From contig OZ243916.1 in assembly GCA_965213675.1 (NCBI GenBank), positions 1,632,001-1,696,000 on the forward strand: 64,000 nt of DNA, given 5' to 3'. Position 1 is the first letter of the stretch; each line of letters opens with the position of its first letter. Source of the stretch: an uncultured Candidatus Binatia bacterium (lineage in GTDB: Bacteria; Desulfobacterota; Binatia; UBA9968; JAJDTQ01). Made by a program: the position numbers and the translations under genes. Under the pieces are notes generated by a model. The model did no database searches. It saw nothing but the letters and a program-made list of their open reading frames with translations, and was not told the origin of the DNA. This document shows, piece after piece, positions 17,223-48,840 of the stretch.

Positions 17223-17940
17223 CGGCAAGGTCGCCATCGTCACCGGAGCCAGCCGCGGCATCGGGCGGGCGGTGGCCTTGGAATTCGCGCGTCAAGGCGC
17301 GATCCTCGTCATCACCGGCGTGCGCGACCGCAGGGCGCTGGAGAGCGTGCGGGACGAACTGGTCTCGCTGGGCGCGGAGTGCATCGCGCGCATGGCGAAT
17401 GTGGGCCGGCGCGCCGACATGGACAGGCTGGCAGCGGAGACGGTGGAGCGCTGGGGCCGCGTGGATGTGCTGGTGAACAATGCGGGCGTGCTCCGGATGG
17501 CGCGCTTCGAGGACATCTCCGAAGAGCAATGGGACGAGACCCTGCGGGTGCACCTCAAGGGCGCATTCAACGGCATGCAGGCCGTGTTGCCGGTGATGAA
17601 GCGGCAGCGCGCCGGCAAGATCATCAACCTGGCCGGACCCGCCGCGTTGCGGCCATCCATCGGTGTCTCCGACTACGCCAGCGCCAAGGGCGGCATCATC
17701 ACGCTGACCTTCAACGTCGCCAACGAGATGAAGGCGTACAACATCCAGATCAACTGCATCTCCCCGGTGGCGGACACCCGCATGACCGACGCCATCGCGG
17801 AGTTCCGCGGACGCGAGTCAGGCTCGGCAACGCGCCCGAGCCCGGTGCCACCCGAAGCCGTGGCGCCGGCGTTCGTCTTCTTCGCGTGCAGCGACAGCGA
17901 TTACATCACGGGCGAAGTGCTGGGTTTCGGGCGGAAATAA
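17209..17940 (+). CDS. SDR family oxidoreductase (FabG-like)
   Basis: TGASRGIG, NNAG, YASAK. Confidence 0.92.
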   Translation: MGRLDGKVAIVTGASRGIGRAVALEFARQGAILVITGVRDRRALESVRDELVSLGAECIARMANVGRRADMDRLAAETVERWGRVDVLVNNAGVLRMARFEDISEEQWDETLRVHLKGAFNGMQAVLPVMKRQRAGKIINLAGPAALRPSIGVSDYASAKGGIITLTFNVANEMKAYNIQINCISPVADTRMTDAIAEFRGRESGSATRPSPVPPEAVAPAFVFFACSDSDYITGEVLGFGRK

Positions 17941-18059
17941 GCGGCTCCGCCTGGAGGGGCCACCGAATCGGCGGCAGCCCCGGGGATCTTCAGAAGTGCG
18001 GCGCTCCCGGCGGCAGCCCAGCCGCGCGCGGCGCGGCGCGATGGAAACGAGGTGAAACC

Positions 18060-19055
18060 ATGCTCCGAAGAACAGCGACCGCCTGGCTCGTCGCCAGCGC
18101 CCTCACTGCGCTGGCCGCCACCGCGGCGGCTCAACCCCTCGGCTATCAGGCGGTGCCCCGGGACGCGTTTCCGGTGTTCGACTACCCGAAGATGCTGAGC
18201 GCCGCGGAAGCGGAGAAACAGGAGGTTATCTTCGACCGCGACGTCGTCATCGGCGTGGCCCACAACGGCGAGGCCAAGGCCTACCCCATCACCATCATGG
18301 GGGTCCACGAATTGGGCAACGACACCATTGGAGGGGTGCCCATCGCGGTCTCCTGGTGACCGCTTTGCCAAACGTCTATCGTGTATAGACGCAAACTGAA
18401 CGACCGAGTGCTGAGCTTCGGCCACGCGGGCATTCTCTACGAGAACTCGTTCATCATGTACGACCGCGAAACCGAGTCGCTGTGGGTTCACGTCACCGGC
18501 GAGGCCGCGCACGGCGCGCTCAAGGGCCAGAGGCTCGACTTCATGCCTTCCACCGTCACATCCTGGGCCAACTGGAAGAAGAGCTACCCGTTCACCCAGG
18601 TGCTGCCGGGCTACCGGCGCGGCGGCTTCATGGGAACCTATGTCGGCCCCTTTGAGAGCGACATCCTGGGTCTGGCGGTGCTGGTGAACCTCAAGGCCAA
18701 GCTCTACCCCTACGAGACCCTGGCGCGGCAAAACCTCGTCAACGACGAGTTCAACGGCGCCAGGGTGGTGGTGTACTATTCGCCGGACGACGCCACCGCC
18801 ACGGCGTGGCGGCGGGAACTCGACGGCCGCGCGTTGACGTTCGAGCCATCGGACCGCAAGGACGGCCAGGGGAGTGTGCTGCTGCGCGACCTGGAGACCG
18901 GGAGCCTGTGGTCGTGGCTCCGCGGCGAGGCCGTGGAGGGAGAACTCAAGGGGCGGAAGCTCCGGCAACTCCTGTACAACCCCATCCTCAACGACCGCTT
19001 CGTGGCGTTCTACCCGGGCGCGCCGATCTTCGACACGGCGAGCCAGAATCCTTGA
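18060..19055 (+). CDS. DUF3179-family selenoprotein with signal peptide; Sec at UGA 18357-18359
   Basis: The two ORF-track pieces are in frame across a single TGA, giving VSW-U-PLC where the family has CPLC; LSFGHAG.LY...MYDRETESLW follows. Confidence 0.88.
18363..18396 (+). promoter_or_regulatory. Putative bacterial SECIS hairpin
   Basis: Stem CGTCTAT (18373-79)/ATAGACG (18385-91), loop CGTGT, possible lower stem TTTG/CAAA. Confidence 0.7.
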
Positions 19056-19203
19056 TGAGTCCGATCTTGACCCCAATGGCCGGTCGCCCCTGCGGGAGGT
19101 CGTCCGATCACGATACTCGCGGCTCAGGCTCCGGGCCGGTCCCGAGCTTGCCGGAGGGATCAGGACCCACGGAAAGACAATCCGCGGAATCCTGAACCGG
19201 ACA

Positions 19204-19293: not shown

Positions 19294-20472
19294 GTGCAAC
19301 CGCGGGTCCCGTGCACGTCAAGCCGCGACGAAATCAGCGGCACGGTGACATGCCGGGCCACAGGGATTCCAAGACTCGTGAGCGCCACCAACGACTACAT
19401 CCGAGAAGCACGAGAGCAAAAGGGTCTGACCCTGGCTCAAGTGGCCGACGCGACGCGCATTCCACGTTACTACCTGGAGATTCTGGAAGGCGGCGGCAAC
19501 GAACAACTGGTGTCGGACCGGCTCTACCTGGTCCACTTTCTGCGCGAGTACGCCGCCTATCTGGAGATCGAGGTCGAGACGCTGGCGGCTCAGTTCGTGC
19601 GCGAGAACCGGGGCGTGGGAAACGTGACCGCCCCTCCCGAGACGGAGGCCCGTTCCACGAAAGGAATCACGGTCGCCGTCCTGGCTGTCCTGCTGCTGAT
19701 TGTCGCCGGCATCTACGTCTACGATCCGACGCTGGTGAATCCCGTCAACCTTACCCGCACGGTCAACCAACCCGGCGAGGAAGCACAGCCCGCCGCCCCG
19801 CCGGAAGTCGTCGAGACGCCATCGTTGCCGACCCCTGACGCCGCCCAAACGCCTCCGGTGAGCACAGAGCCGAGTTCGGTACTGCAACCCGAAGCCGACG
19901 AAACCGTGCCCGCCGATCCCATTCTGGCGGAGAGCCCGCCCGCAGCCGACTCGGAACCGCCGCCCGCCGCGGCCTCTGAGACCGCGGGCGCCAGCGAATC
20001 GGGCGCCACGGGCGTTGCGGAGGCGGAACCCCCGGCCGCGACGGACTCGGAGCCCGGCGTTGCGGAGACCGGCACCGCGCCCGGCGCGGTTTCTGAGTCG
20101 GCGGGCGTTACGGAGGCCGAGCCCGAGGCTCCCGAAACCGCGGAGGCCGAGCCGCCAACGACCGCGGCGGCGAGCGAAACGGAGCCGCCACAAACCGGCG
20201 GCGCCGAGGCCGCGGCAGCACACACCCTCACCATTGCGGCTGACTCCCGCTCCTGGATGCGGGTCTGGGTGGACGACCGACCGTCGCGCGACCTGTTGCT
20301 CAACGCCGGCCAGAGCGCCACGCTGTCCGCGGACACCGGATTCAGGATCACCTTCGGCAACGCCGGAGGCGTGCGCCTCACGCTCAACAACCAAGAACTC
20401 CCCGCCGTCGGCAGGTCCGGCGAGGTAGTGCGCAACTACGAACTGCCGCGCCCCGCGCAGGCAACGCCATGA
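19294..20472 (+). CDS. rodZ: RodZ-like protein (HTH, TM, Pro/Ala/Glu linker, DUF4115); start uncertain, possibly 19378
   Basis: [24 protein letters not shown]; single TM; SWMRVWVD...FGNAGGV. Confidence 0.85.
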
Positions 20473-24686: not shown

Positions 24687-35009
<10,323 letters not shown>

Positions 35010-35249
35010 CTCTTCGCCCTCCGCGAATTCCTTGATCCATCGTGCGCGACGAAACGCAACGGGTCGCAGGCATTTCGTACAGCCGCCTTTCGCGACCACC
35101 GCGCTTGCGCTTCCTGCCATTCCCGCAAGAGCAGTACACACGTGCCGACAAAAGAACTCCTGCGCACCTTACCACGCTGCCGACGGCGAAAAAGACCCGC
35201 GGATTGTTATGCGAATCAACCAGGCACCACACTAGCCGTGGCGGGCCGG

Positions 35250-38216: not shown

Positions 38217-40964
38217 CTACACCCGCTCCACGCGCGCGGCGCAGAACTTGTACTCCGGGATTTTTCCATAGGGATCGAGCGCCGGGTTGGTCAGCAGGTT
38301 CACGGCCGCCTCGGCAAAACAGAACGGAATGAAGACGCAGCCCTCGGGGACGGCGCTGTCGGCGCGCGCCTTGATGTCGATGACGCCGCGGCGGGTGGCG
38401 ACGCGCACGAGGTCGCCGGCGGCGACGCCGAGACGGCGCAGTTCCGCGGGGGAGAGGCTCGCCACTGCCTCGGGCTCCAGCTCGTCGAGCACGCTGGCGC
38501 GCCTCGTGATGGCGCCGGTGTGCCAGTGCTCCAGTTGGCGGCCGGTGCTGAGGATCATGGGGAACAACGCGTCGGGCTGTTCCGCGGGCGGGATGATGTC
38601 CACGGGCACCAGCCTGCCCCGGTGGCTGGCGGTGGGGAAACCCTCGGCGAACACGATGTCGGTTCCGGGCTGGTCCGGCGCCGGGCATGGATAGGTGACG
38701 GAGCTTTCCCGATCCACCCGCTCCCAGGTGATGTGCTGGAGGGAAGGCATGACCTGCTTCATCTCCGCGAAGACATCCGCCGGGCCGGAGTAGTTCCAGT
38801 CGAGGCCCATGCGCCGCGCGATCTCCTGGATGATCCACCAGTCCTGCCGGACGCCGTCCGGGGGCGCCAGCGCGGCGCGCCCCATCTGCACCTGACGGTT
38901 GCTGTTGGTGACGGTGCCGTTCTTCTCGGGCCACGCCGAGGCGGGCAGCACCACGTCGGCGTGAAACGCCGTTTCGGTGAGGAAGATCTCCTGCACCACC
39001 AAGTGCTCCAGCCGGGCCAACGCCTCGCGCGCATGCTGCACGTCGGGGTCCGACATGGCCGGGTTCTCGCCCATGATGTACATGCCCTTGATCCGCCCGG
39101 CATGCACCGCGTCCACGATCTCCATCACGGTGAGGCCCCGTTGCGGATCCAGCGCCGTCTTCCAGACATCCTCGAAACTGCGGCGCACGGCATCCTGCTC
39201 CACCGAGCGGTAGTCGGGGTAGAACATGGGGATGAGGCCGGCGTCGGAGGCGCCCTGCACGTTGTTCTGGCCGCGCAGCGGATGAAGGCCCGTGCCGGGC
39301 CGCCCCACCTGTCCGGTCACCAGGGCCAACGCGATGAGGCAGCGCGCGTTGTCGGTGCCGTGAATGTGTTGCGAGATGCCCATGCCCCAGAAGATGATCG
39401 CGGCCCGGGCGCGGGCGTACAGCCGCGCCACCGCGCGCAGCGTGCCAGCGTCGATGCCGCACACCTCCGCCATGGCCTCGGGCGTGAACTCCGCCACGTG
39501 CCGCTTCAGTTCCTCGAAGCCTTCCGTGTGGGCCGCCACGTAGTCGTGGTCGTAGAGATCTTCCTGAATGATGACGTGGAGCAGCGCGTTGAGCAGCGCC
39601 ACGTCCGTGCCGGGCCTGAACTGGAGCATGCGGGTGGCGTGGCGCCGCAGCGCCTGACCGCGCGGGTCCATCACGATCAGCTCGGCTCCGCGCCGGGCGG
39701 CCTGCTTGAAGTAGGTGGCCGCCACCGGGTGGTTCTCCGTCGGGTTGGCGCCGATGACGACGACCACGTCCGCGTCCTCGCAGGCGGTGAAGGGCGCAGT
39801 CACCGCGGCCGAGCCGATGCCCTCCATGAGCGCCGCCACCGAGGACGCGTGGCACAGCCGCGTGCAGTGGTCCACGTTGTTGGTGCCGAAGCCCGCGCGC
39901 ACGAGCTTTTGCACCAGGTAGGCCTCTTCGTTGGAACCCTTGGCCGAGCCGTAGGCCCCCAAGGCGGCGCCGCCGTCGCGCTCCCGGATCTTCCGAAGCC
40001 CCGCGGCGGCCAGGTCCAGCGCTTCGTCCCAGGCGGCCTCGCGGAAATGCGTGTACGGGTTGGCCGGGTCGATGTCCGCCGACGCGTCCTTGAGCGCGCC
40101 GGCGCGGCGGATCAGCGGCACGGTGAGCCGATGCGGGTGGGTCACATAATCGAATCCGAAGCGCCCCTTGACGCACAGCCGCCCGCGGTTGGACGGCCCG
40201 GTGCGGCCGCGCACCGCCACGATGGCGTTGTCCGTAACGCCATAGTCGATCTGGCAGCCCACGCCGCAGTAGGGGCACACGCTGGGCACCTGGGCCAGGT
40301 CGTCGCGCTTGTCCACGCCAGCGGCGTCCACCAGCGAGGCGGGCATGAGCGCGCCGGTGGGACACGCCTGCACGCATTCGCCGCAGGCCACGCAGGTGCT
40401 CTCGCCCATGGGATCGTCGAAATCGAAGACCACCTTGGCGCCGGCGCCGCGGTGGGCCATGCCGATGACGTCGTTCACCTGCACCTCCCGGCAGGCGCGC
40501 ACGCACAGATTGCAGTGGATACAGGCGTCCAGGGCCACGCGCATGGCCGGGTGGCTGGCGTCCGGCGCCGGCGCCGCGCGCGCCGGGAAACGGCTGTCGG
40601 TCACGTCCAACCGCTCGGCCCACTGCCACAGGCGCGAGCCGGCGTCATGGGCCGCCTCCCGGGCGGGCTGGTCCGCCATCAGCAGTTCCATGACCATCCG
40701 GCGCGCGCTCCGGGCGCGCTCGCTGTCCGTGCGCACCTTCATGCCCGGCGCCGGGCGGCGGATGCACGAAGCCGCCAGCACCCGCTCCCCTTCCACCTCC
40801 ACCATGCACGCGCGGCAGTTGCCGTCGGGCCGGTAACCGGGCTGCGGGTCGTAGCACAGGTGCGGCAGCACCGTGCCTTGGCGCTCGGCCGCCTGCCATA
40901 GGGTCTCGCCGGACGCAGCCTCCACTTCGCGGCCGTCAAGCATGAAGCGCACGGGTTCGCTCAC
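38217..40964 (-). CDS. fdhF: Formate dehydrogenase alpha subunit (Cys-type, with N-terminal Fe-S domains)
   Basis: GNCRAC, CIHCNLC, CPYCGVGC, NVDHCTRLCH, LRGQNNVQG. Confidence 0.93.
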   Translation of the reverse strand: MSEPVRFMLDGREVEAASGETLWQAAERQGTVLPHLCYDPQPGYRPDGNCRACMVEVEGERVLAASCIRRPAPGMKVRTDSERARSARRMVMELLMADQPAREAAHDAGSRLWQWAERLDVTDSRFPARAAPAPDASHPAMRVALDACIHCNLCVRACREVQVNDVIGMAHRGAGAKVVFDFDDPMGESTCVACGECVQACPTGALMPASLVDAAGVDKRDDLAQVPSVCPYCGVGCQIDYGVTDNAIVAVRGRTGPSNRGRLCVKGRFGFDYVTHPHRLTVPLIRRAGALKDASADIDPANPYTHFREAAWDEALDLAAAGLRKIRERDGGAALGAYGSAKGSNEEAYLVQKLVRAGFGTNNVDHCTRLCHASSVAALMEGIGSAAVTAPFTACEDADVVVVIGANPTENHPVAATYFKQAARRGAELIVMDPRGQALRRHATRMLQFRPGTDVALLNALLHVIIQEDLYDHDYVAAHTEGFEELKRHVAEFTPEAMAEVCGIDAGTLRAVARLYARARAAIIFWGMGISQHIHGTDNARCLIALALVTGQVGRPGTGLHPLRGQNNVQGASDAGLIPMFYPDYRSVEQDAVRRSFEDVWKTALDPQRGLTVMEIVDAVHAGRIKGMYIMGENPAMSDPDVQHAREALARLEHLVVQEIFLTETAFHADVVLPASAWPEKNGTVTNSNRQVQMGRAALAPPDGVRQDWWIIQEIARRMGLDWNYSGPADVFAEMKQVMPSLQHITWERVDRESSVTYPCPAPDQPGTDIVFAEGFPTASHRGRLVPVDIIPPAEQPDALFPMILSTGRQLEHWHTGAITRRASVLDELEPEAVASLSPAELRRLGVAAGDLVRVATRRGVIDIKARADSAVPEGCVFIPFCFAEAAVNLLTNPALDPYGKIPEYKFCAARVERV

Positions 40965-41038
40965 CGCAGTTCCTCCCGATGATCGCGCGGGGCGTTGTCC
41001 GTGCGCTCCATGGCGTGGTCGCGGTTGTGTCCGCTCAC
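40961..41038 (-). CDS. Possible 25-aa coupling mini-ORF between the FDH subunits
   Basis: GTGA overlap at both ends, each preceded by GGGAGGA. Confidence 0.35.
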   Translation of the reverse strand: MSGHNRDHAMERTDNAPRDHREELR

Positions 41039-42738
41039 GACAACTCCTCCCGGAAATAGCGCCAGGCGCAGCGCACCGAGTTGGGCGCCGCCTGCCCCAG
41101 GCCGCAGATGGAGGCGTCGGCCATGGCCGTGCCCAGGGCGTCCAGCAGCGGTTCGTCCCACGCCGGCCGTTCCATGAGCGCCACGGCCTTCTCCGTGCCC
41201 ACGCGGCACGGCGTACACTGGCCGCAACTCTCGTGCTTGAAGAAGCGCATGAGGTTCCGCACCACCGCCTTCACGTCGTCCTGATCGCTCAACACCACCA
41301 CGCCATGGGAGCCGACGAAGCAGCCGTGGGCTTCCAGGGAGCCGAACTGGAGCGGGATGTCCGCCATGGATGCCGGCAGGAGACCGCCCGAAGCGCCCCC
41401 CGGTAGGTAGCCCTTGAAGCGGTGACCGGGCGCCATGCCGCCGCAGTGTCCGTCGATCAGCTCGCGCGCGGTGATGCCGGTGGGCGCGATCTTGACGCCG
41501 GGGTGCGCCACCCGGCCCGACACCGAGTACGCGTGGAGACCCGCCCCGCCGTTGCGGCCCTGGGCGCTGAACCACTCCGGCCCCTTCTCGAGAATGTCCC
41601 GGACCCAGTAAAGCGTTTCGACGTTCTGCACCAGCGTGGGCCGGCCGAAGAGCCCGGTCTCGGCGACGTAGGGCGGCCGGTGCCGCGGCAACCCGCGCTT
41701 GCCCTCGATGCTCTCGATCATGGCCGACTCTTCGCCGCAGATGTAAGCGCCGGCCCCGCGCCGCAGGTGCAGATCCACGTGCGCGGCCATCCCCGCTTCC
41801 CGGAGCCGGGACAACTCCCGGGACAGGATGGCCCGGACCTCGGCGTACTCGTCCCGCAGGTAGACGTAGACGGCCTCGGCCTCCACCGCCCAGGCCGCCA
41901 CCAGCACGCCCTCCAGGAACCGGTGCGGGTCGCTCTCCAGGAAATGGCGGTCCTTGAAGGTGCCCGGCTCGCCCTCGTCCGCGTTGACGGTCATGAGCCG
42001 GGGACCGGGATAGCCGCGCACGATCTGCCACTTGCGCCCGGTGGGGAAGCCGGCGCCGCCGAGACCCCGGAGGCCCGAATCCGTCACCTGCGCCACCACG
42101 TCCTCGCGCGTGCGGCCGCCATCGAGGCAATCCTTCAGGAGCGCGTAGCCGCCTGCCGCGACATAGGCGTCGTAACCCCTGAACGACGGCATCACCGGTT
42201 CGGTCTCCCGATCCCGGGCCAGGGCCGCCACGGACTCCACGGTGGCGCGTTCCACCCAGCGCCGCCCCACCCGGGCCACGGGAGCGCGGTCGCAGCCGCC
42301 CATGCACGGTCCCGGCAGCACGCGCACATCCGGCCCCGTGCTCTCCGGCAGGTCGCGCAGAAGGCCGCGGGCGCCCATCATTTCGCACACCAAGCCGTCG
42401 CACACCCGCACGGTCACGTCCGCGGGCGGCGCCGAAGCGTCCCTGGCCACGTCGAAGTGGGCATAGAAGGTCGCCACCTCGTACACCTCGGCAAGAGCCA
42501 GGCGCATCTCCTCCGCCAGTGCCGCGAGGTGGGCGGCGGACAGAACCTGGTAGCGGTCCTGAATGACGTGCAGGAACTCGATCAAAAGATCCCGGCGCCG
42601 CGGGCGGTCCCCCAGAAGCGCCCGAACCTGTTCCAACGCGTCGGGGTCGACCGGCCGCCCTCTCGGACGATTGCGGCCGCGGCCCCGTCCCGCGCCCGGG
42701 TGCCGGCGTCGCCGCGGCGGTTCATGTTTCTCGGCCAT
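41035..42738 (-). CDS. NAD-dependent FDH beta subunit (NuoE-NuoF-like fusion)
   Basis: EVATFY, LRGLGGAGF, NADEGEPGTFKD, GAGAYICGEES, ESCGQCTPCR. Confidence 0.92.
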   Translation of the reverse strand: MAEKHEPPRRRRHPGAGRGRGRNRPRGRPVDPDALEQVRALLGDRPRRRDLLIEFLHVIQDRYQVLSAAHLAALAEEMRLALAEVYEVATFYAHFDVARDASAPPADVTVRVCDGLVCEMMGARGLLRDLPESTGPDVRVLPGPCMGGCDRAPVARVGRRWVERATVESVAALARDRETEPVMPSFRGYDAYVAAGGYALLKDCLDGGRTREDVVAQVTDSGLRGLGGAGFPTGRKWQIVRGYPGPRLMTVNADEGEPGTFKDRHFLESDPHRFLEGVLVAAWAVEAEAVYVYLRDEYAEVRAILSRELSRLREAGMAAHVDLHLRRGAGAYICGEESAMIESIEGKRGLPRHRPPYVAETGLFGRPTLVQNVETLYWVRDILEKGPEWFSAQGRNGGAGLHAYSVSGRVAHPGVKIAPTGITARELIDGHCGGMAPGHRFKGYLPGGASGGLLPASMADIPLQFGSLEAHGCFVGSHGVVVLSDQDDVKAVVRNLMRFFKHESCGQCTPCRVGTEKAVALMERPAWDEPLLDALGTAMADASICGLGQAAPNSVRCAWRYFREELS

Positions 42739-42789
42739 CTTCTCAGGTTCCCCGATTCGACATCCGTGATCCCCGCGGTCCGCGCTCGC

Positions 42790-42969
42790 TTACCGGCTCT
42801 CCTTTTCAAGGCGTTCGATCAACGCCCTCACCTCGTCGAGCCGTGCGCGCGCTTCCGCCGCCGGCCGCGCCACCTGATCCGCCCCGGCCCCGTCCCGCAC
42901 GGCGTCCTCCAAGGTCGTGACGGCGATACCGAACACCTTCAGCAAGCGGCGCACTTCATCGCTTGGCAT
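42790..42969 (-). CDS. Small hypothetical helical protein
   Basis: AAAGGGGG RBS; MPSDEVRRLLKVFG...; lies within the operon. Confidence 0.55.
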   Translation of the reverse strand: MPSDEVRRLLKVFGIAVTTLEDAVRDGAGADQVARPAAEARARLDEVRALIERLEKESR

Positions 42970-43125
42970 CGAGCCCCCTTTCATATCGGGCAATCTCGGG
43001 CGTGGGTGCCCGGCAGCCGCGACTTTCGAACAGGCCTGCGCTTCCAGGGAACCATGATTCGTGATGCGTCGAGAGTCCTGACACGGGCAGTTCCCCGGGA
43101 AACACGCCATTGGCGGGTGCGCCGG

Positions 43126-44934
43126 TCATAAGGCACACGCGCTCAGCCCCAGCGCCTTGCGCCTGGCCTCGGACACACGCCCGTCCGCATTCCACTGGCG
43201 GGCGTCATAGTAGTCGCGGACCATTGCCCGCAGTTCATCGCGGGTGAGCCGCGTTCCCTGGGCCACGCCCGTGGCCAGGGATTCCGTCAGCACCCGCGGC
43301 GGCAACCCGTCGTCCTCGGGTTGCCAGCCTTCGCGCTCGTTGAAGCAGCGCTTGAGCGTGTGAATGCGCTCCGCCGCGCGCCGCAACTCCGGCGCGCTGT
43401 AATCCCAGCCCGTGACCTTGGCAAGCAGGTCCGCCGCCTCGGCGTAGAAGTCCTCGAAGCACTTGCGCAGGAACTTGCATACGATGAGCGAATCCAGCAT
43501 GGCGGCGTAGTCTTCCGACGCCGCCACCAGAGCGCCCCGGGGCGGGGCGGAGTCGAGACGGTCCACCGCGCCGGAGAAATCCACCTCGTAGGCGCCGGAG
43601 CGGTTGTGGCACGCGCCGCGCGGACTCACCGCCAGCCCCAGGGCCATGGTCTTGAGGCTGCGGGGCTCGTAGCCCGGCAACTCCAGGCCCTTCACCTGCA
43701 TGGCCCAATCCAGGGAGCCATGGCCCAGCGCCTGCGCGGCGCGCCGGGACCCCTCGGCCAGAAGCTCACCCACGCCCCGGCGTTCCGCGATGGCCGGTAT
43801 CGCATCCAGCACCGCCTCCGCCGCGCCAAAGCGCAGCCCGCCGGCCTCGGGCAGCAGCCCACGCTCCGCGCATTCCATGGCCCAGGCCAGCGTGCCACCG
43901 GTGCTGATACTGTCGAGCCCGTACGCGTCGCACAGCCGGGCCGCCTCCAGCACCGCTTCCCGATCCTCGAGGCCGCACAACGGCCCCAAGGCGAACAGCG
44001 TCTCGTATTCCATACGCTGCTCGCCGCCCGCCGACGCCTTGAACAGCCGCTCGCAACGAATGGTGCACGACGCACAGCCGTTGCGCCGGCTGAAGCTGGT
44101 CTCGGTCAGGCTTTCGCCGCTCAACTCGTCGGCCGCGCCGAAGGTGGGCTGCTGGAAGTTGCGCGCGGGTAGCGCGCCGAGCCGGTCGAACACCGCGAGG
44201 TTGGCCACGGTGCCGACTTCACGGTACTTGGCCGTATGGCTCCCCAGGCTCCGTTGCCGCAGGACGGCGGCCGTGGCGGCCACGCCTTCGGGGTCCGCCA
44301 CTTCAACCCTCCGGTCGCCGCTCAGCGCAATAGCCTTGAGGTTCTTGGAACCCATGACCGCGCCCACGCCGCCCCGGCCGGCGTGCCGGCCCTCGTTGCT
44401 GATGGTGGCGAAGCGCACGAGGTTCTCCCCCGCCGGCCCCACCGCCGCCACCCGCGCCCCGGCGCCCCCCGGTTCCGCCCGCACCGCGGTCTCCGCGTCG
44501 GCGGCGCTTCGCCCCCAGAGATGGCGCGCATCGCGCAACTCCACGCCACCGTCACGGACCCACAGGTACACGGGCTCCGGCGCCCGCCCGGTGATCACCA
44601 AGGCGTCCACGCCCACGGCCTTGATGGCCAGCGCGAAAAAGCTCGACGAGAGCGAATCGGCGATGAAACCGGTCAGGGGCGACTTCGTCACCACCGCGTA
44701 CTTGGCCGTGGTGGTGAGCCCGGTGCCCGCCAGCGGAGCGCTGGCCAAGACAAGAGGGTTTTCCGGCGACAGCGGTTCCACGCCCGGCGGCGCGAAGTCG
44801 TAGAGCAGGCTCGTGCCCAGCCCGATGCCGCCGACAAAGGCGCGCAGACGCTCCGCGCCGATCTCACGCCATTGGCCCCGGCCCGTGTCGAGATCCACGT
44901 GCAGGAGCCGATTGTGGAAACCGTGCAACTTCAT
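43126..44934 (-). CDS. aor: Aldehyde:ferredoxin oxidoreductase (tungsten AOR family)
   Basis: KSPLTG, GRGGVGAVMGSKNLKA, EYET, CDAYGLD, RGACH. Confidence 0.92.
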   Translation of the reverse strand: MKLHGFHNRLLHVDLDTGRGQWREIGAERLRAFVGGIGLGTSLLYDFAPPGVEPLSPENPLVLASAPLAGTGLTTTAKYAVVTKSPLTGFIADSLSSSFFALAIKAVGVDALVITGRAPEPVYLWVRDGGVELRDARHLWGRSAADAETAVRAEPGGAGARVAAVGPAGENLVRFATISNEGRHAGRGGVGAVMGSKNLKAIALSGDRRVEVADPEGVAATAAVLRQRSLGSHTAKYREVGTVANLAVFDRLGALPARNFQQPTFGAADELSGESLTETSFSRRNGCASCTIRCERLFKASAGGEQRMEYETLFALGPLCGLEDREAVLEAARLCDAYGLDSISTGGTLAWAMECAERGLLPEAGGLRFGAAEAVLDAIPAIAERRGVGELLAEGSRRAAQALGHGSLDWAMQVKGLELPGYEPRSLKTMALGLAVSPRGACHNRSGAYEVDFSGAVDRLDSAPPRGALVAASEDYAAMLDSLIVCKFLRKCFEDFYAEAADLLAKVTGWDYSAPELRRAAERIHTLKRCFNEREGWQPEDDGLPPRVLTESLATGVAQGTRLTRDELRAMVRDYYDARQWNADGRVSEARRKALGLSACAL

Positions 44935-45842
44935 CCTCCGGCGTCGCTGGACATGAGCAGCACGCGGTCCCCGGGCGCCACGCGGCGGCTGCCGTCGCGC
45001 ACGAAGTCCCGGCCGTTGAGGTTGCACACGTGGCCGGCAGTGAGGCCGCCCGCGCCCTCGGTGAGCACGGGGCCCACCAGCGCCGGCAGCTCTCGCGCCA
45101 GCGCCGCCCATACGTGGGCCAGGGTCGCCGACTCCGGAAGATGCACGGATACCCGGCTGGTGCGGGCGCGCAGCCGCGCGACCCCGAACAGCTCGACCTC
45201 GCAGAGGCCGGCGCCGCTCCCGGCCGCGCCTTCGGACGTCTCGCGCCACCGCGCCAAGGCGCGTTCGTAGTCGTCCGGGGTGTTCATGTTGAAGAAACTC
45301 GAACCGTCGGGATCGAAGGCGCGGACCTCGTCCTCCTCCAGCCTCGCGGTGCGGACCTTGTCGTAAAGGAAGACCGGGCGCAACTCGCCGCGCTCGAGTT
45401 GCCGTTCCAGCAACGGCAGCACCGAGCGCCGGTACACCGCGTGGAGCGGCTGCAGGCGTCCTTCCCAGCGCGGCACCACGACGTCGTGGCCTGGCAACCG
45501 CGCGGCCAGGTGCGCGACCAGGGGGAGACTGAGGAACGGGACATCGCAGGATGTCACGAAGGCGGCGGCGCTCCGGGACGCCTCCAGGCCGTAGCGGATG
45601 CCGCCCACCGGCCCCTGATACGCCACGTCGTCGCGCACCACGGTCGCGGGAAGCTCCGGCAACTCCTGTTCGGGCGCGGCCACCACCACGCGTTCCGGAA
45701 ACAACGGCGTCAGCCCGTTGATCACGCGCGTGATCAACGGTTCCCCGCCAAAGGGAAGCATGGCCTTGGGCCGGCCCATGCGGCTGCTCTTGCCGCCCGC
45801 CAGGATGATGGCCGTACCGACCTTGTCCAGTTCAGCAGTCAT
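44931..45842 (-). CDS. mobA: MobA (Mo/W-cofactor guanylyltransferase) fused to a C-terminal MoaD/ThiS-like domain
   Basis: LAGGKSSRMG, GPVGG, CDVP, FFNMNTPDDY, then VELFG..R...SSDAGG*. Confidence 0.85.
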   Translation of the reverse strand: MTAELDKVGTAIILAGGKSSRMGRPKAMLPFGGEPLITRVINGLTPLFPERVVVAAPEQELPELPATVVRDDVAYQGPVGGIRYGLEASRSAAAFVTSCDVPFLSLPLVAHLAARLPGHDVVVPRWEGRLQPLHAVYRRSVLPLLERQLERGELRPVFLYDKVRTARLEEDEVRAFDPDGSSFFNMNTPDDYERALARWRETSEGAAGSGAGLCEVELFGVARLRARTSRVSVHLPESATLAHVWAALARELPALVGPVLTEGAGGLTAGHVCNLNGRDFVRDGSRRVAPGDRVLLMSSDAGG

Positions 45843-46925: not shown

Positions 46926-47441
46926 TCATGCCAGAACGCCTTCCAGCAACAGATAGCCCGGCAACCAGCCGGTCAAGATACCCTGTATCGTGGTGACCGC
47001 GCCGGTCACCTTGGCGATGGGTTTCTGCATCGCGAGCAGCAGGAAGAACATGAACCACAAGACGGCCCACGCTGCCCAGCACAGTCCGAACCAATACCCC
47101 CACAGCGTGCTGGCATTGATCAGCGTGTCCAGCGCTACTGGAACGACGGTGATGGCGACGAAGAGACTGTACCAGCCCAGCCCACGGCCATCGACGTCGT
47201 TGAATCGATTGTAGGCCACCCACAGGTACGTGAAGGTGAAGAGAAGCGTCAGCGCCGCGCCTTTGATCGACGCGGCATCGGCGCCCGGCCCGAAAGCCAT
47301 GAATAAAGCCACCAGCGCCGTGAGACCACCGACGAAGAAATTGATGATGGCGATCTCCCGGTCAGCGATGCGGCCCATCAGCCAGATGCCGTTCAGGAAA
47401 AGAACGGACCCGACGTACAGCAGTGCAAGTCCCAAGAGCAT
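46926..47441 (-). CDS. amiS: AmiS/UreI family amide channel
   Basis: LLYVG.VLFLNG, LLFTFTYLW, DGRGLGWYSLFVA. Confidence 0.92.
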   Translation of the reverse strand: MLLGLALLYVGSVLFLNGIWLMGRIADREIAIINFFVGGLTALVALFMAFGPGADAASIKGAALTLLFTFTYLWVAYNRFNDVDGRGLGWYSLFVAITVVPVALDTLINASTLWGYWFGLCWAAWAVLWFMFFLLLAMQKPIAKVTGAVTTIQGILTGWLPGYLLLEGVLA

Positions 47442-47601
47442 TGTTCAGGCCCTCCGAGGGTCACGGGTTCGCAGCCAGCCAATATTGGGAACGCCGGCTC
47501 CGGGAAAAACCGCGGAGCCGGCGCCCACTTTCTGTCATCCATTGGAATGGGATGACGGGGCGGAGAAGCGGCGCATGCCGTCGCCTTTCCGCCCTGCGTC
47601 G

Positions 47602-48840
47602 CTAGCTGCAGGATGTGGCGTCCACACCGCTGACCTGAACCGTGGGGCCGGAAGCGTTCGGCCGGATGTCGAAGTCGAAGATCCCGGTTGGAATGGCGAG
47701 CGTACAACAGGCGTTGGGGATGTCGACGATTCCGCTGATCCGACCCTCGACCGGGGCCGTCCCCAGTATCATGTAGGCCTGTTCGCCGGAATAACCGAAC
47801 TTCTTGAGGTACTCGATGGCGTTCAGGCAAGCACGCCGGTACGCAACGGTCGCATCCAGGTACTTCTGGGAGCCGTCGTGCTCATCCACGCAAACCCCTT
47901 CGAAGATCAGGTAGTCCGAGTAATGCGGCTCCACCGGGCTCGGCCTGAAAATCGGGTTGGTGATGCCGTACTTGTCGATACCGCCCTTGATGACATCGAC
48001 GCCGATGTCGATCCAGCCGGCCATCTCGATGGCGCCGCAGAAGGTGATCTCTCCGTCCCCTTGGGACCAGTGGATATCGCCCATGGAGAGCCCGCCCCCG
48101 GGCATGTAGACCGGGAAGTAGCAGCGGGAGCCGCGCGACAGGTTCTTGATGTCGCAGTTGCCTCCGTGCTCGCGCCCGGGAACCGTCCGCGCGCCATCCC
48201 GCCCCGCGGCGTCCGCGGCCGCGCCGGTCAACTGGCCCATCAGCGCGGTGGTGGTGCCGGCAAGTCCGTCCGGCAACGTGCACAGCGGCGGCACGCGATT
48301 CGGATCCGTCCTGAACAGGGCGGACTCGCGGTCGTTCCACCGCTTCAACAGGTCGGCCGAAGGCAGGGTGCCGATGAGTCCCGGATGAATCAGCCCGGGG
48401 AAACGCACGCCCGGGATGTGGCGGGAAGACGTGTAGACACCGCTGAAGTCCCAGCAGGCCTTGCGCGCGGCGGGATAGTGCTTGTCGAGGAAGCCTCCGC
48501 CATTCTCCAGGGCGAAGATGCCGGTAAAGCCCCACTGCGAGTCCTCGAGCCAGCCGATGTCGTTGATGTCCACAACCAGCAGGTCGCCCGGCTCCGCCCC
48601 TTCGACGCCGAACGGGCCACTCAGGTAATGCACCTTGGAAAGATCGACGTCGCGGATGTCGTTGGCAGACTCGTCGTTATGAATCTGACCTCCGGTCCAG
48701 TCATAACACTCGACCCGAAACTCATCACCGGGCTTGAACCGTTCTACGATCGGAACATCAGGGTGCCACCGATTGTGGGTCTTGACCGCCTGATCCTCCG
48801 GCCACTTGTCCATCTCCGCCCGAAATACCGTTTTGGCCAT
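47602..48840 (-). CDS. fmdA: Formamidase/acetamidase (FmdA/AmdA)
   Basis: HNRWHPD, DWTGGQI, HYLSGP, PGREHGGNCDIKNL, GDIHWSQGDGEITFCGAIE. Confidence 0.93.
   Translation of the reverse strand: MAKTVFRAEMDKWPEDQAVKTHNRWHPDVPIVERFKPGDEFRVECYDWTGGQIHNDESANDIRDVDLSKVHYLSGPFGVEGAEPGDLLVVDINDIGWLEDSQWGFTGIFALENGGGFLDKHYPAARKACWDFSGVYTSSRHIPGVRFPGLIHPGLIGTLPSADLLKRWNDRESALFRTDPNRVPPLCTLPDGLAGTTTALMGQLTGAAADAAGRDGARTVPGREHGGNCDIKNLSRGSRCYFPVYMPGGGLSMGDIHWSQGDGEITFCGAIEMAGWIDIGVDVIKGGIDKYGITNPIFRPSPVEPHYSDYLIFEGVCVDEHDGSQKYLDATVAYRRACLNAIEYLKKFGYSGEQAYMILGTAPVEGRISGIVDIPNACCTLAIPTGIFDFDIRPNASGPTVQVSGVDATSCS

Follow-up and report, generated by a model that had tools for sequence, protein, structure and literature searches.

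Positions 18060–19055 on the forward strand of the 64-kb window (the whole stretch of DNA analysed here, to which all plain coordinates refer) hold a genuine selenoprotein gene of an already catalogued kind, a new member of the DUF3179 selenoproteins that comes from a Binatia-like genome and has been missed by standard gene calling. We are highly confident that one functional gene, coding for a DUF3179 selenoprotein, occupies this stretch. With the UGA at codon 100 read as selenocysteine (Sec), one continuous frame of 331 codons and a stop is obtained; the product has 331 residues, with the context ...AVSW-U-PLC-QTSIVYRR. The open reading frame (ORF) list, made with translation table 11, cuts this gene into 17379..18359 and 18381..19055. 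An earlier note on this DNA, hereafter the original prediction, had proposed that the TGA at the cut is in frame with the downstream ORF and that the two pieces form a 331-residue protein with U100, all of which can be read directly in the sequence. Its description of the selenoprotein as “hidden” holds for the annotation, where the gene is split by gene callers, but not for the family, which is already catalogued.

Both the domain assignment and the predicted fold extend across the UGA. The read-through protein matches Pfam family PF11376 (DUF3179) with 228.6 bits against a gathering cut-off of 27 (E = 1.5e-67). The match comprises two stretches, the best of which covers residues 34–184 and crosses codon 100. 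From a 69-row alignment, AlphaFold2 modelled the read-through chain with a mean predicted local distance difference test (pLDDT) score of 93.3 and a predicted template-modelling (pTM) score of 0.89. The pLDDT is low only over residues 1–25, with values of 53–54 over residues 1–20. The model is nearly all beta and contains two tandem beta-rich repeats, at residues ~62–175 and 203–317, with the UxxC motif located on a beta-hairpin turn of the first repeat, a strand lying on either side. At positions 100 and 103, Cys is conserved at a level of at least 90 % in the same 69-row alignment. Searching the PDB by sequence gave nothing below E = 0.1, a search of the ESM Atlas with the natural Cys-type relative P0136 gave no usable match, and no NCBIfam model matches the read-through protein.

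The public protein record of this family is broken at the same codon. A search of 5.8 billion proteins returned 249 matches at E ≤ 1e-10; the best 120 of the 249, for which lengths and coverage are known, are all C-terminal fragments of 195–234 residues that cover only 58–68 % of the query, and each of the 12 fragments that were fetched begins at the Val-108 position. When residues 30–135 were used as the query, 25 proteins were found. Twelve new proteins from this search were aligned, of which nine are N-terminal fragments that end exactly at ...SW, while the other three are full-length and read WCPVC, YCPLC and YCPLC at the U100 site. The truncated public gene calls probably arise because NCBIfam has no model for the protein.

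The UGA occupies a position at which most relatives carry Cys. In a phmmer alignment of 152 relatives, comprising 221 aligned stretches, the U100 column is filled in 181, and CPLC is the commonest motif at the site, as expected from the original statement that DUF3179 proteins carry CPLC. The original prediction had also staked itself on the UGA lying opposite a conserved Cys. This is what we found, with W/Y-C-P-x-C in all three full-length relatives and Cys in 131 of the 181 stretches. The family itself is large, a DUF3179 search of representatives giving 8934 matches at E ≤ 0.001.

At the DNA level, a scan of genome contigs yielded 49 related loci (L001–L049). The closest are Binatia metagenome-assembled genomes (MAGs) at 80–90 % identity, followed by SAR324, Entotheonella, Rokuibacteriota, Fidelibacterota/Neomarinimicrobiota and Planctomycetota. 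The homologous codon is TGA in every one of the 49 loci and, with the window included, in 50 of 50 sequences, representing at least six phylum-level lineages. The real terminators of the 49 loci are TAG in 28, TAA in 11 and TGA in nine, with one locus at a contig end. Upstream and downstream of the TGA alike, most differences between the window and 12 relatives are at third codon positions; in the comparison with L001, the counts at codon positions 1/2/3 are 3/0/16 for the N-terminal part and 6/4/13 for the C-terminal part. Judged by these substitutions, both halves are under purifying selection. TGA is also the commonest normal stop in the window, ending 25 of the 37 Pfam-supported genes, and UGA is therefore not reassigned; an ordinary stop is recoded only at codon 100. 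Only one TGA in the window is flanked on either side by sequence with coding-type codon composition, namely codon 100 of the DUF3179 gene. We consider it very probable that this UGA encodes Sec.

In a quick midpoint-rooted tree, all 26 sampled Sec forms fall into one supported subclade, in which four to six Cys forms are nested, and 37 Cys forms lie outside it. The window sequence belongs to an all-Sec clade with 20 members (support 98) and to a Binatia clade with six (support 100). Several MAGs contain two DUF3179-Sec paralogues on separate contigs (L001 and L014; L023 and L034; L030 and L036; L022 and L033), both with the TGA and with the hairpin described below.

Shortly after the UGA, the sequence can form an RNA hairpin that resembles a bacterial selenocysteine insertion sequence (bSECIS) element. 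The original prediction had described a perfect 7-bp stem (CGTCTAT/ATAGACG) with the loop CGTGT, beginning 13 nt after the UGA, and the hairpin was found exactly so, with 20 nt between the UGA and the loop. In the Fig. 2 legend of PMC13188914, the bSECIS consensus has a loop of 3–9 nt, an upper stem of 4–16 bp and a UGA-to-loop distance of 16–37 nt; the consensus in that paper also has a G in the first two loop positions, usually then G or U, and a minimum free energy (MFE) of −7.5 kcal/mol or lower. The geometry of the window hairpin agrees with this consensus, given its 5-nt loop CGUGU with G second and then U, its 7-bp stem and its 20-nt spacing. A perfect 7-bp Watson–Crick hairpin with bSECIS geometry follows 1892 of 127840 window positions (1.5 %) and 23 of the 1446 TGA triplets in the window (1.6 %). 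Because such hairpins occur after 1.5 % of positions, this one is suggestive on its own, not decisive.

Conservation and covariation across the 50 sequences raise the hairpin well above chance. The helix register is kept, with all seven pairs in 35 sequences, six in 13, five in one and three in one (L036). Pairing holds in 93.1 % of cells over the 37 distinct rows, compared with 17–46 % when the partners are slid. Both sides have changed in four of the seven pairs, and none of 500 shuffles reached the covariation score, which is to be read with the caveat that the sequences are related and the structure was derived from one of them. RNAalifold recovered six of the seven pairs. Compensating codon pairs across the arms include Ser-UCU/Arg-AGA, Ala-GCC/Gly-GGC, Ala-GCG/Arg-CGC, Ala-GCU/Ser-AGC and Val-GUU/Asn-AAU. 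Residues facing each other on the arms are replaced in concert, which preserves the pairing of the SECIS stem, and this is a clean case of a protein shaped by an RNA signal. The stem of the window hairpin is made of codons that are rare in the other genes of the window, UCU accounting for 1.7 % of Ser codons, AGA for 1.2 % of Arg codons and UAU for 17.8 % of Tyr codons (31 genes, 14958 codons). An Rfam gathering scan of the window matched no family. The SECIS-like character originally ascribed to the hairpin is borne out by its geometry and by its conservation and covariation in relatives.

The established bacterial pathway suggests, by analogy, that the hairpin 13 nt past UGA-100 would act as a bacterial SECIS element. 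SelB, together with GTP and Sec-tRNA(Sec), would bind the hairpin and deliver selenocysteine once the UGA enters the ribosomal A site, and translation would then run on to the stop at 19053.

Further candidates for TGA recoding were sought in the window and in the 36 of the 49 loci that have a G+C content of at least 0.6. Five candidates were obtained from the 36 loci. Three are real, and all three are in L035, a Rokuibacteriota MAG, where these TGA-interrupted redox genes lie within 4 kb of the DUF3179-Sec gene and a Pfam domain spans each TGA. The stretch L035:2963–8452 looks like an envelope selenoprotein cluster. The candidates in L009 and L011 were rejected as junctions between adjacent genes.

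Several observations weigh against Sec insertion at codon 100. The window hairpin is AU-rich and weak, with −6.9 kcal/mol over 42 nt, above the −7.5 kcal/mol cut-off; the passage of PMC13188914 that gives this cut-off does not state the folding length behind it. A value of −11.6 kcal/mol is reached only over 63 nt, where the z-score against shuffles is 0.12. Among the 50 homologous 42-mers, −7.5 kcal/mol is reached by only 33, and the MFE structure holds at least five of the seven helix pairs in only 26. No selA, selB, selD or tRNA-Sec was found in the 64-kb window by ARAGORN, Rfam and Pfam on 47 ORFs, and ARAGORN found no tRNA-Sec in any of the 49 related loci. The locus flanks, represented by 202 ORFs from 23 of the 49 loci, contained no sel genes among 81 ORFs searched with Pfam or among 121 further ORFs searched with NCBIfam at E ≤ 1e-30. 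The window also encodes a formate dehydrogenase alpha subunit whose reading frame is uninterrupted; it is therefore Cys-type and gives no independent sign of Sec use. The weak hairpin and the lack of sel genes or tRNA-Sec in the window and the examined flanks would suit read-through without Sec, whether by SelB-independent suppression or by near-cognate insertion of Trp or Cys; the hairpin would then serve only as a pause or read-through stimulator. We regard this as very unlikely, as a site aligned with a conserved Cys from a CxxC pair is the classic Sec/Cys signature, the geometry and G-U loop of the hairpin fit the bSECIS model, the family is catalogued as selenoproteins, and the relative in L035 stands among other classic selenoprotein genes with UGA/Cys pairs.

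Two further explanations dispense with recoding altogether. In one, the gene has decayed to a pseudogene, with the TGA as a real premature stop and the downstream ORF as a remnant, or the TGA stems from faulty sequencing or assembly; the fragmentary public calls among the best 120 of the 249 matches, and the absence of Sec machinery from the window, are in line with this. However, the identical TGA recurs in 49 of 49 independent loci from several phyla and is kept exactly while the terminal stops vary, unlike what error or decay would leave, and the covarying hairpin is conserved. Together, the conserved internal TGA and the third-position bias on both sides exclude decay and error so firmly that we give this explanation almost no weight. 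Alternatively, two functional genes might encode a 99-residue exported protein and a 224-residue protein from GTG 18381 that assemble after translation. Both pieces are open under table 11, and the databases contain both kinds of fragment. Yet GTG 18381 sits in the hairpin loop and has nothing upstream comparable to the GAGGTG Shine-Dalgarno sequence of the full gene, which also precedes the start in most Binatia relatives. The predicted signal peptide is on the N-terminal piece and the C-terminal piece would have none, the Pfam domain and the predicted beta-hairpin span the break, full-length Cys forms are continuous, and the P-L-C-Q codons between the TGA and the GTG region are conserved though they would be untranslated. 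Two separate genes are therefore highly improbable, a little less so than decay or error. Translation of one gene through a Sec codon remains our preferred reading.

The gene can be placed among known selenoproteins. DUF3179, with the motif UxxC/T, is listed in the selenoprotein tables of PMC9312934 and PMC13188914, in line with the earlier statement that Sec variants of DUF3179 exist. Both papers attribute the DUF3179 selenoprotein to Zhang & Gladyshev 2007 (PMC1976440), whose abstract and section 12 do not use the name DUF3179 and do not allow the matching family to be identified. The window gene has the same Pfam domain, UxxC motif class (here U-P-L-C), UGA/Cys pairing and bSECIS-like hairpin directly 3′ of the UGA as the catalogued DUF3179 selenoproteins, but the present copy comes from a Binatia-like genome and its nearest loci are Binatia MAGs. 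Literature searches found no paper joining Binatia with selenocysteine or Binatota with selenoprotein, and SAR324 alongside selenoprotein was found only as an entry in a table of organisms. Most members of the family are Cys-type DUF3179 proteins, which share the fold, the length, CPLC at the same place and extracytoplasmic signals; they have extracellular fusion partners (fn3, VWA, Ig-like) and differ by Cys in place of Sec. As in bacterial SECIS elements (E. coli fdhF and fdnG, and the bSECISearch consensus), the hairpin lies within the coding region just past the UGA, has a small apical loop with an early G then U, and keeps the UGA-to-loop distance within 16–37 nt. Unlike them, it has no conserved lower helix, its core stem is just 7 bp, and the energy criterion is reached only in a longer folding window. 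The two-residue Sec/Cys redox-type motif is shared with Prx-like, AhpD-like, DsbA-like and Trx-like selenoproteins carrying UxxC or CxxU. Genes of the Prx and AhpD types are co-located with DUF3179 in L035, and Cys-type DUF3179 relatives are fused to AhpC-TSA/Redoxin. In contrast to these selenoproteins, the DUF3179 fold is not that of thioredoxin; it has tandem beta-rich repeats and no significant PDB neighbour.

For annotation, the finding means that close relatives (the best 120 of the 249 matches) are recorded as truncated fragments. As NCBIfam has no family model, the selenoprotein is systematically missed in Binatia, SAR324 and other uncultured lineages. Knowledge of selenocysteine decoding itself is unchanged.

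Export of the protein is likely; the window copy would use a signal peptide, and some SAR324 relatives would use lipoprotein signals. The original prediction had recognised a signal-peptide-like N-terminus, which fits both inspection and hydropathy, the Kyte–Doolittle value KD(12) reaching a maximum of 1.87 in the first 30 residues. A hydrophobic N-terminal stretch is likewise present in 41 of 48 relatives, and lipobox-like motifs occur in four, namely three SAR324 MAGs and one labelled Pseudomonadota (L045). Among 23 long DUF3179 representatives, five have an N-terminal AhpC-TSA/Redoxin domain fused to them; others carry fn3, VWA, Ig-like or CarboxypepD_reg modules, and one an ArsP_1 permease. 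A deiodinase-like thioredoxin-fold domain is fused to one Sec-type N-terminal fragment.

Gene order is shared within Binatia only, where an aminotransferase, an SDR, DUF3179, a RodZ-like protein and a threonine aldolase-like protein follow one another. Neighbours elsewhere are varied and often envelope-related, including cytochrome c (L022, L046), DsbD_TM, Metal_resist (L048) and a TonB receptor (L026). Downstream of a Planctomycetales DUF3179-Sec gene, the stretch L042:4665–7890 encodes an 815-residue FAD pyridine-nucleotide-disulfide oxidoreductase, a relative of MerA and lipoamide dehydrogenase, and also holds an arsenosugar-biosynthesis-type glycosyltransferase.

The fusions say more about function than the neighbourhood does. 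Together, the redoxin fusions and the L035 cluster point to an extracytoplasmic U/C-x-x-C site that is kept reduced by redoxin and CcdA/DsbD-type pathways. The fusions and this four-gene TGA-interrupted cluster of Rokuibacteriota offer the first testable lead to the function of a widespread DUF. We propose that in the exported protein the U100-x-x-C103 pair, on its beta-hairpin turn in the first of the two tandem repeats, would be the active site. Most probably the two residues would form a selenolate/thiol redox couple, with envelope pathways of the TlpA/redoxin and CcdA/DsbD types holding it in the reduced state; a metal(loid)-binding site in need of the same reduction is the less likely option. 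We hold the redox pair at roughly even probability. This functional assignment has points against it as well. A fold search of the PDB gave no matches at E ≤ 0.001, and no neighbourhood is conserved outside Binatia or across phyla. In thioredoxin-fold oxidoreductases, the CxxC motif caps a helix at its N-terminus, and a CxxC on a beta-hairpin turn is unlike this arrangement. Identity as a thioredoxin-fold oxidoreductase was rejected, given an almost all-beta model with the motif placed between strands, and no thioredoxin-family Pfam match on the read-through protein. The DUF3179 protein, not thioredoxin-fold itself, may nevertheless act with such enzymes.

The competing functional explanation takes U100-x-x-C103 as a non-catalytic selenolate/thiolate pair that would bind a metal or metalloid such as Cu, Hg, Zn, Fe or As, with redoxins only keeping the ligands reduced, much as TlpA keeps the Sco and CoxB ligands reduced. 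The position of the motif on a beta-hairpin turn of the model would suit such a site. The only high-probability local matches in the PDB fold search are Rieske-type beta domains, 3c0d (probability 0.96) and 5bok (0.89), and these are weak, with E values of ~0.1; the template-modelling (TM) score of the 3c0d match is 0.53 by target, and both matches have TM ~0.2 by query. The ArsP_1 fusion of one relative and the Metal_resist, cytochrome c and TonB receptor neighbours listed above are also in its favour. Rieske [2Fe-2S] clusters are held by two Cys and two His ligands in CxH...CxxH motifs. An actual Rieske [2Fe-2S] domain was rejected, as the fold matches are only weak and local and there is no conserved His pair. 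His is found at H83 in 99, at H122 in 19 and at H144 in 27 of the 181 stretches; among Cys residues only two are conserved, and no His reaches the conservation that a Rieske cluster would need. Moreover, the neighbours named in support are not conserved. In favour of a metal(loid) site, several catalogued selenoproteins are metal-handling UxxC proteins according to the tables of PMC9312934. Overall, we judge such a site less likely than not and place it behind the redox pair.

More speculatively, DUF3179 could represent an unrecognised exported class with two tandem Rieske-like beta domains, in which a U/C-x-x-C “knuckle” would be a selenolate-thiolate site that binds or transforms a metal(loid) or another envelope oxidant, with dedicated partners of the TlpA/redoxin and CcdA types to recharge it. 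This broader idea is doubtful, and we rate it below either of the simpler functional readings. If it were true, the Sec form would mark a set of lineages, in that Binatia, SAR324, Entotheonella, Rokuibacteriota, Fidelibacterota and some Planctomycetota would carry a systematically unannotated envelope selenoproteome.

Table 1. Features of the DUF3179 selenoprotein gene in the window and of the gene cluster in the related locus L035.
Feature	Position	Strand	Basis or remark
Shine-Dalgarno GAGGTG	18049..18054	+	sequence read directly; 5 nt ahead of ATG 18060
Complete DUF3179 selenoprotein gene	18060..19055	+	translation, Pfam PF11376, AlphaFold2 model
Predicted signal peptide (MLRR, hydrophobic core, AAA before Q25)	18060..18131	+	inspection, Kyte–Doolittle hydropathy
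In-frame UGA, predicted Sec codon U100	18357..18359	+	TGA in 50/50 sequences; opposite Cys of full-length relatives
U-P-L-C motif, U100...C103	18357..18368	+	between model strands 93–100 and 105–110
bSECIS-like hairpin	18373..18391	+	5′ arm 18373–18379, loop 18380–18384, 3′ arm 18385–18391
224-aa ORF given by gene callers	18381..19055	+	GTG “start” is the Val-108 codon within the hairpin loop
True terminator TGA and second TGA directly after	19053..19058	+	sequence, translation
CMD/AhpD-like, C-N-Y-U	L035:2963–3505	+	TGA-interrupted
DUF3179	L035:4099–5097	+	TGA-interrupted
AhpC/TSA, W-U-P-Y-C	L035:5466–6149	+	TGA-interrupted
DsbD_TM gene	L035:6477–7526	+	Pfam
CMD, C-T-Y-U	L035:7622–8452	−	TGA-interrupted

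At its 3′ end, the window gene stops at a tandem pair of TGA codons, after a tail (…DTASQNP) that is slightly longer; TAG is the stop in 28 of the 49 relatives. Further along, ARAGORN calls a tRNA-Leu(CAG) at 19936–20014 (−), within the Pro/Ala-rich linker of the RodZ-like ORF 19294–20472 (+); this call is probably a false positive, since no tRNA came up anywhere in the window in the Rfam gathering scan. The Cys-type formate dehydrogenase alpha subunit mentioned above (TIGR01591) belongs to a group of genes at 38217–45842 (−) that also includes a NuoF-like flavoprotein, an aldehyde:ferredoxin oxidoreductase and a MobA-like transferase; this enzyme does without Sec though the genome apparently decodes Sec elsewhere. 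A single ORF of 3484 residues at 24687–35141 (−) encodes a type I polyketide synthase with KS, AT, DH, methyltransferase, ER, KR and ACP domains and a second KS. At 46926–48840 (−), a formamidase/acetamidase gene adjoins genes for an AmiS/UreI-type channel and a zinc-ribbon protein, in what looks like a small amide-utilisation cluster.

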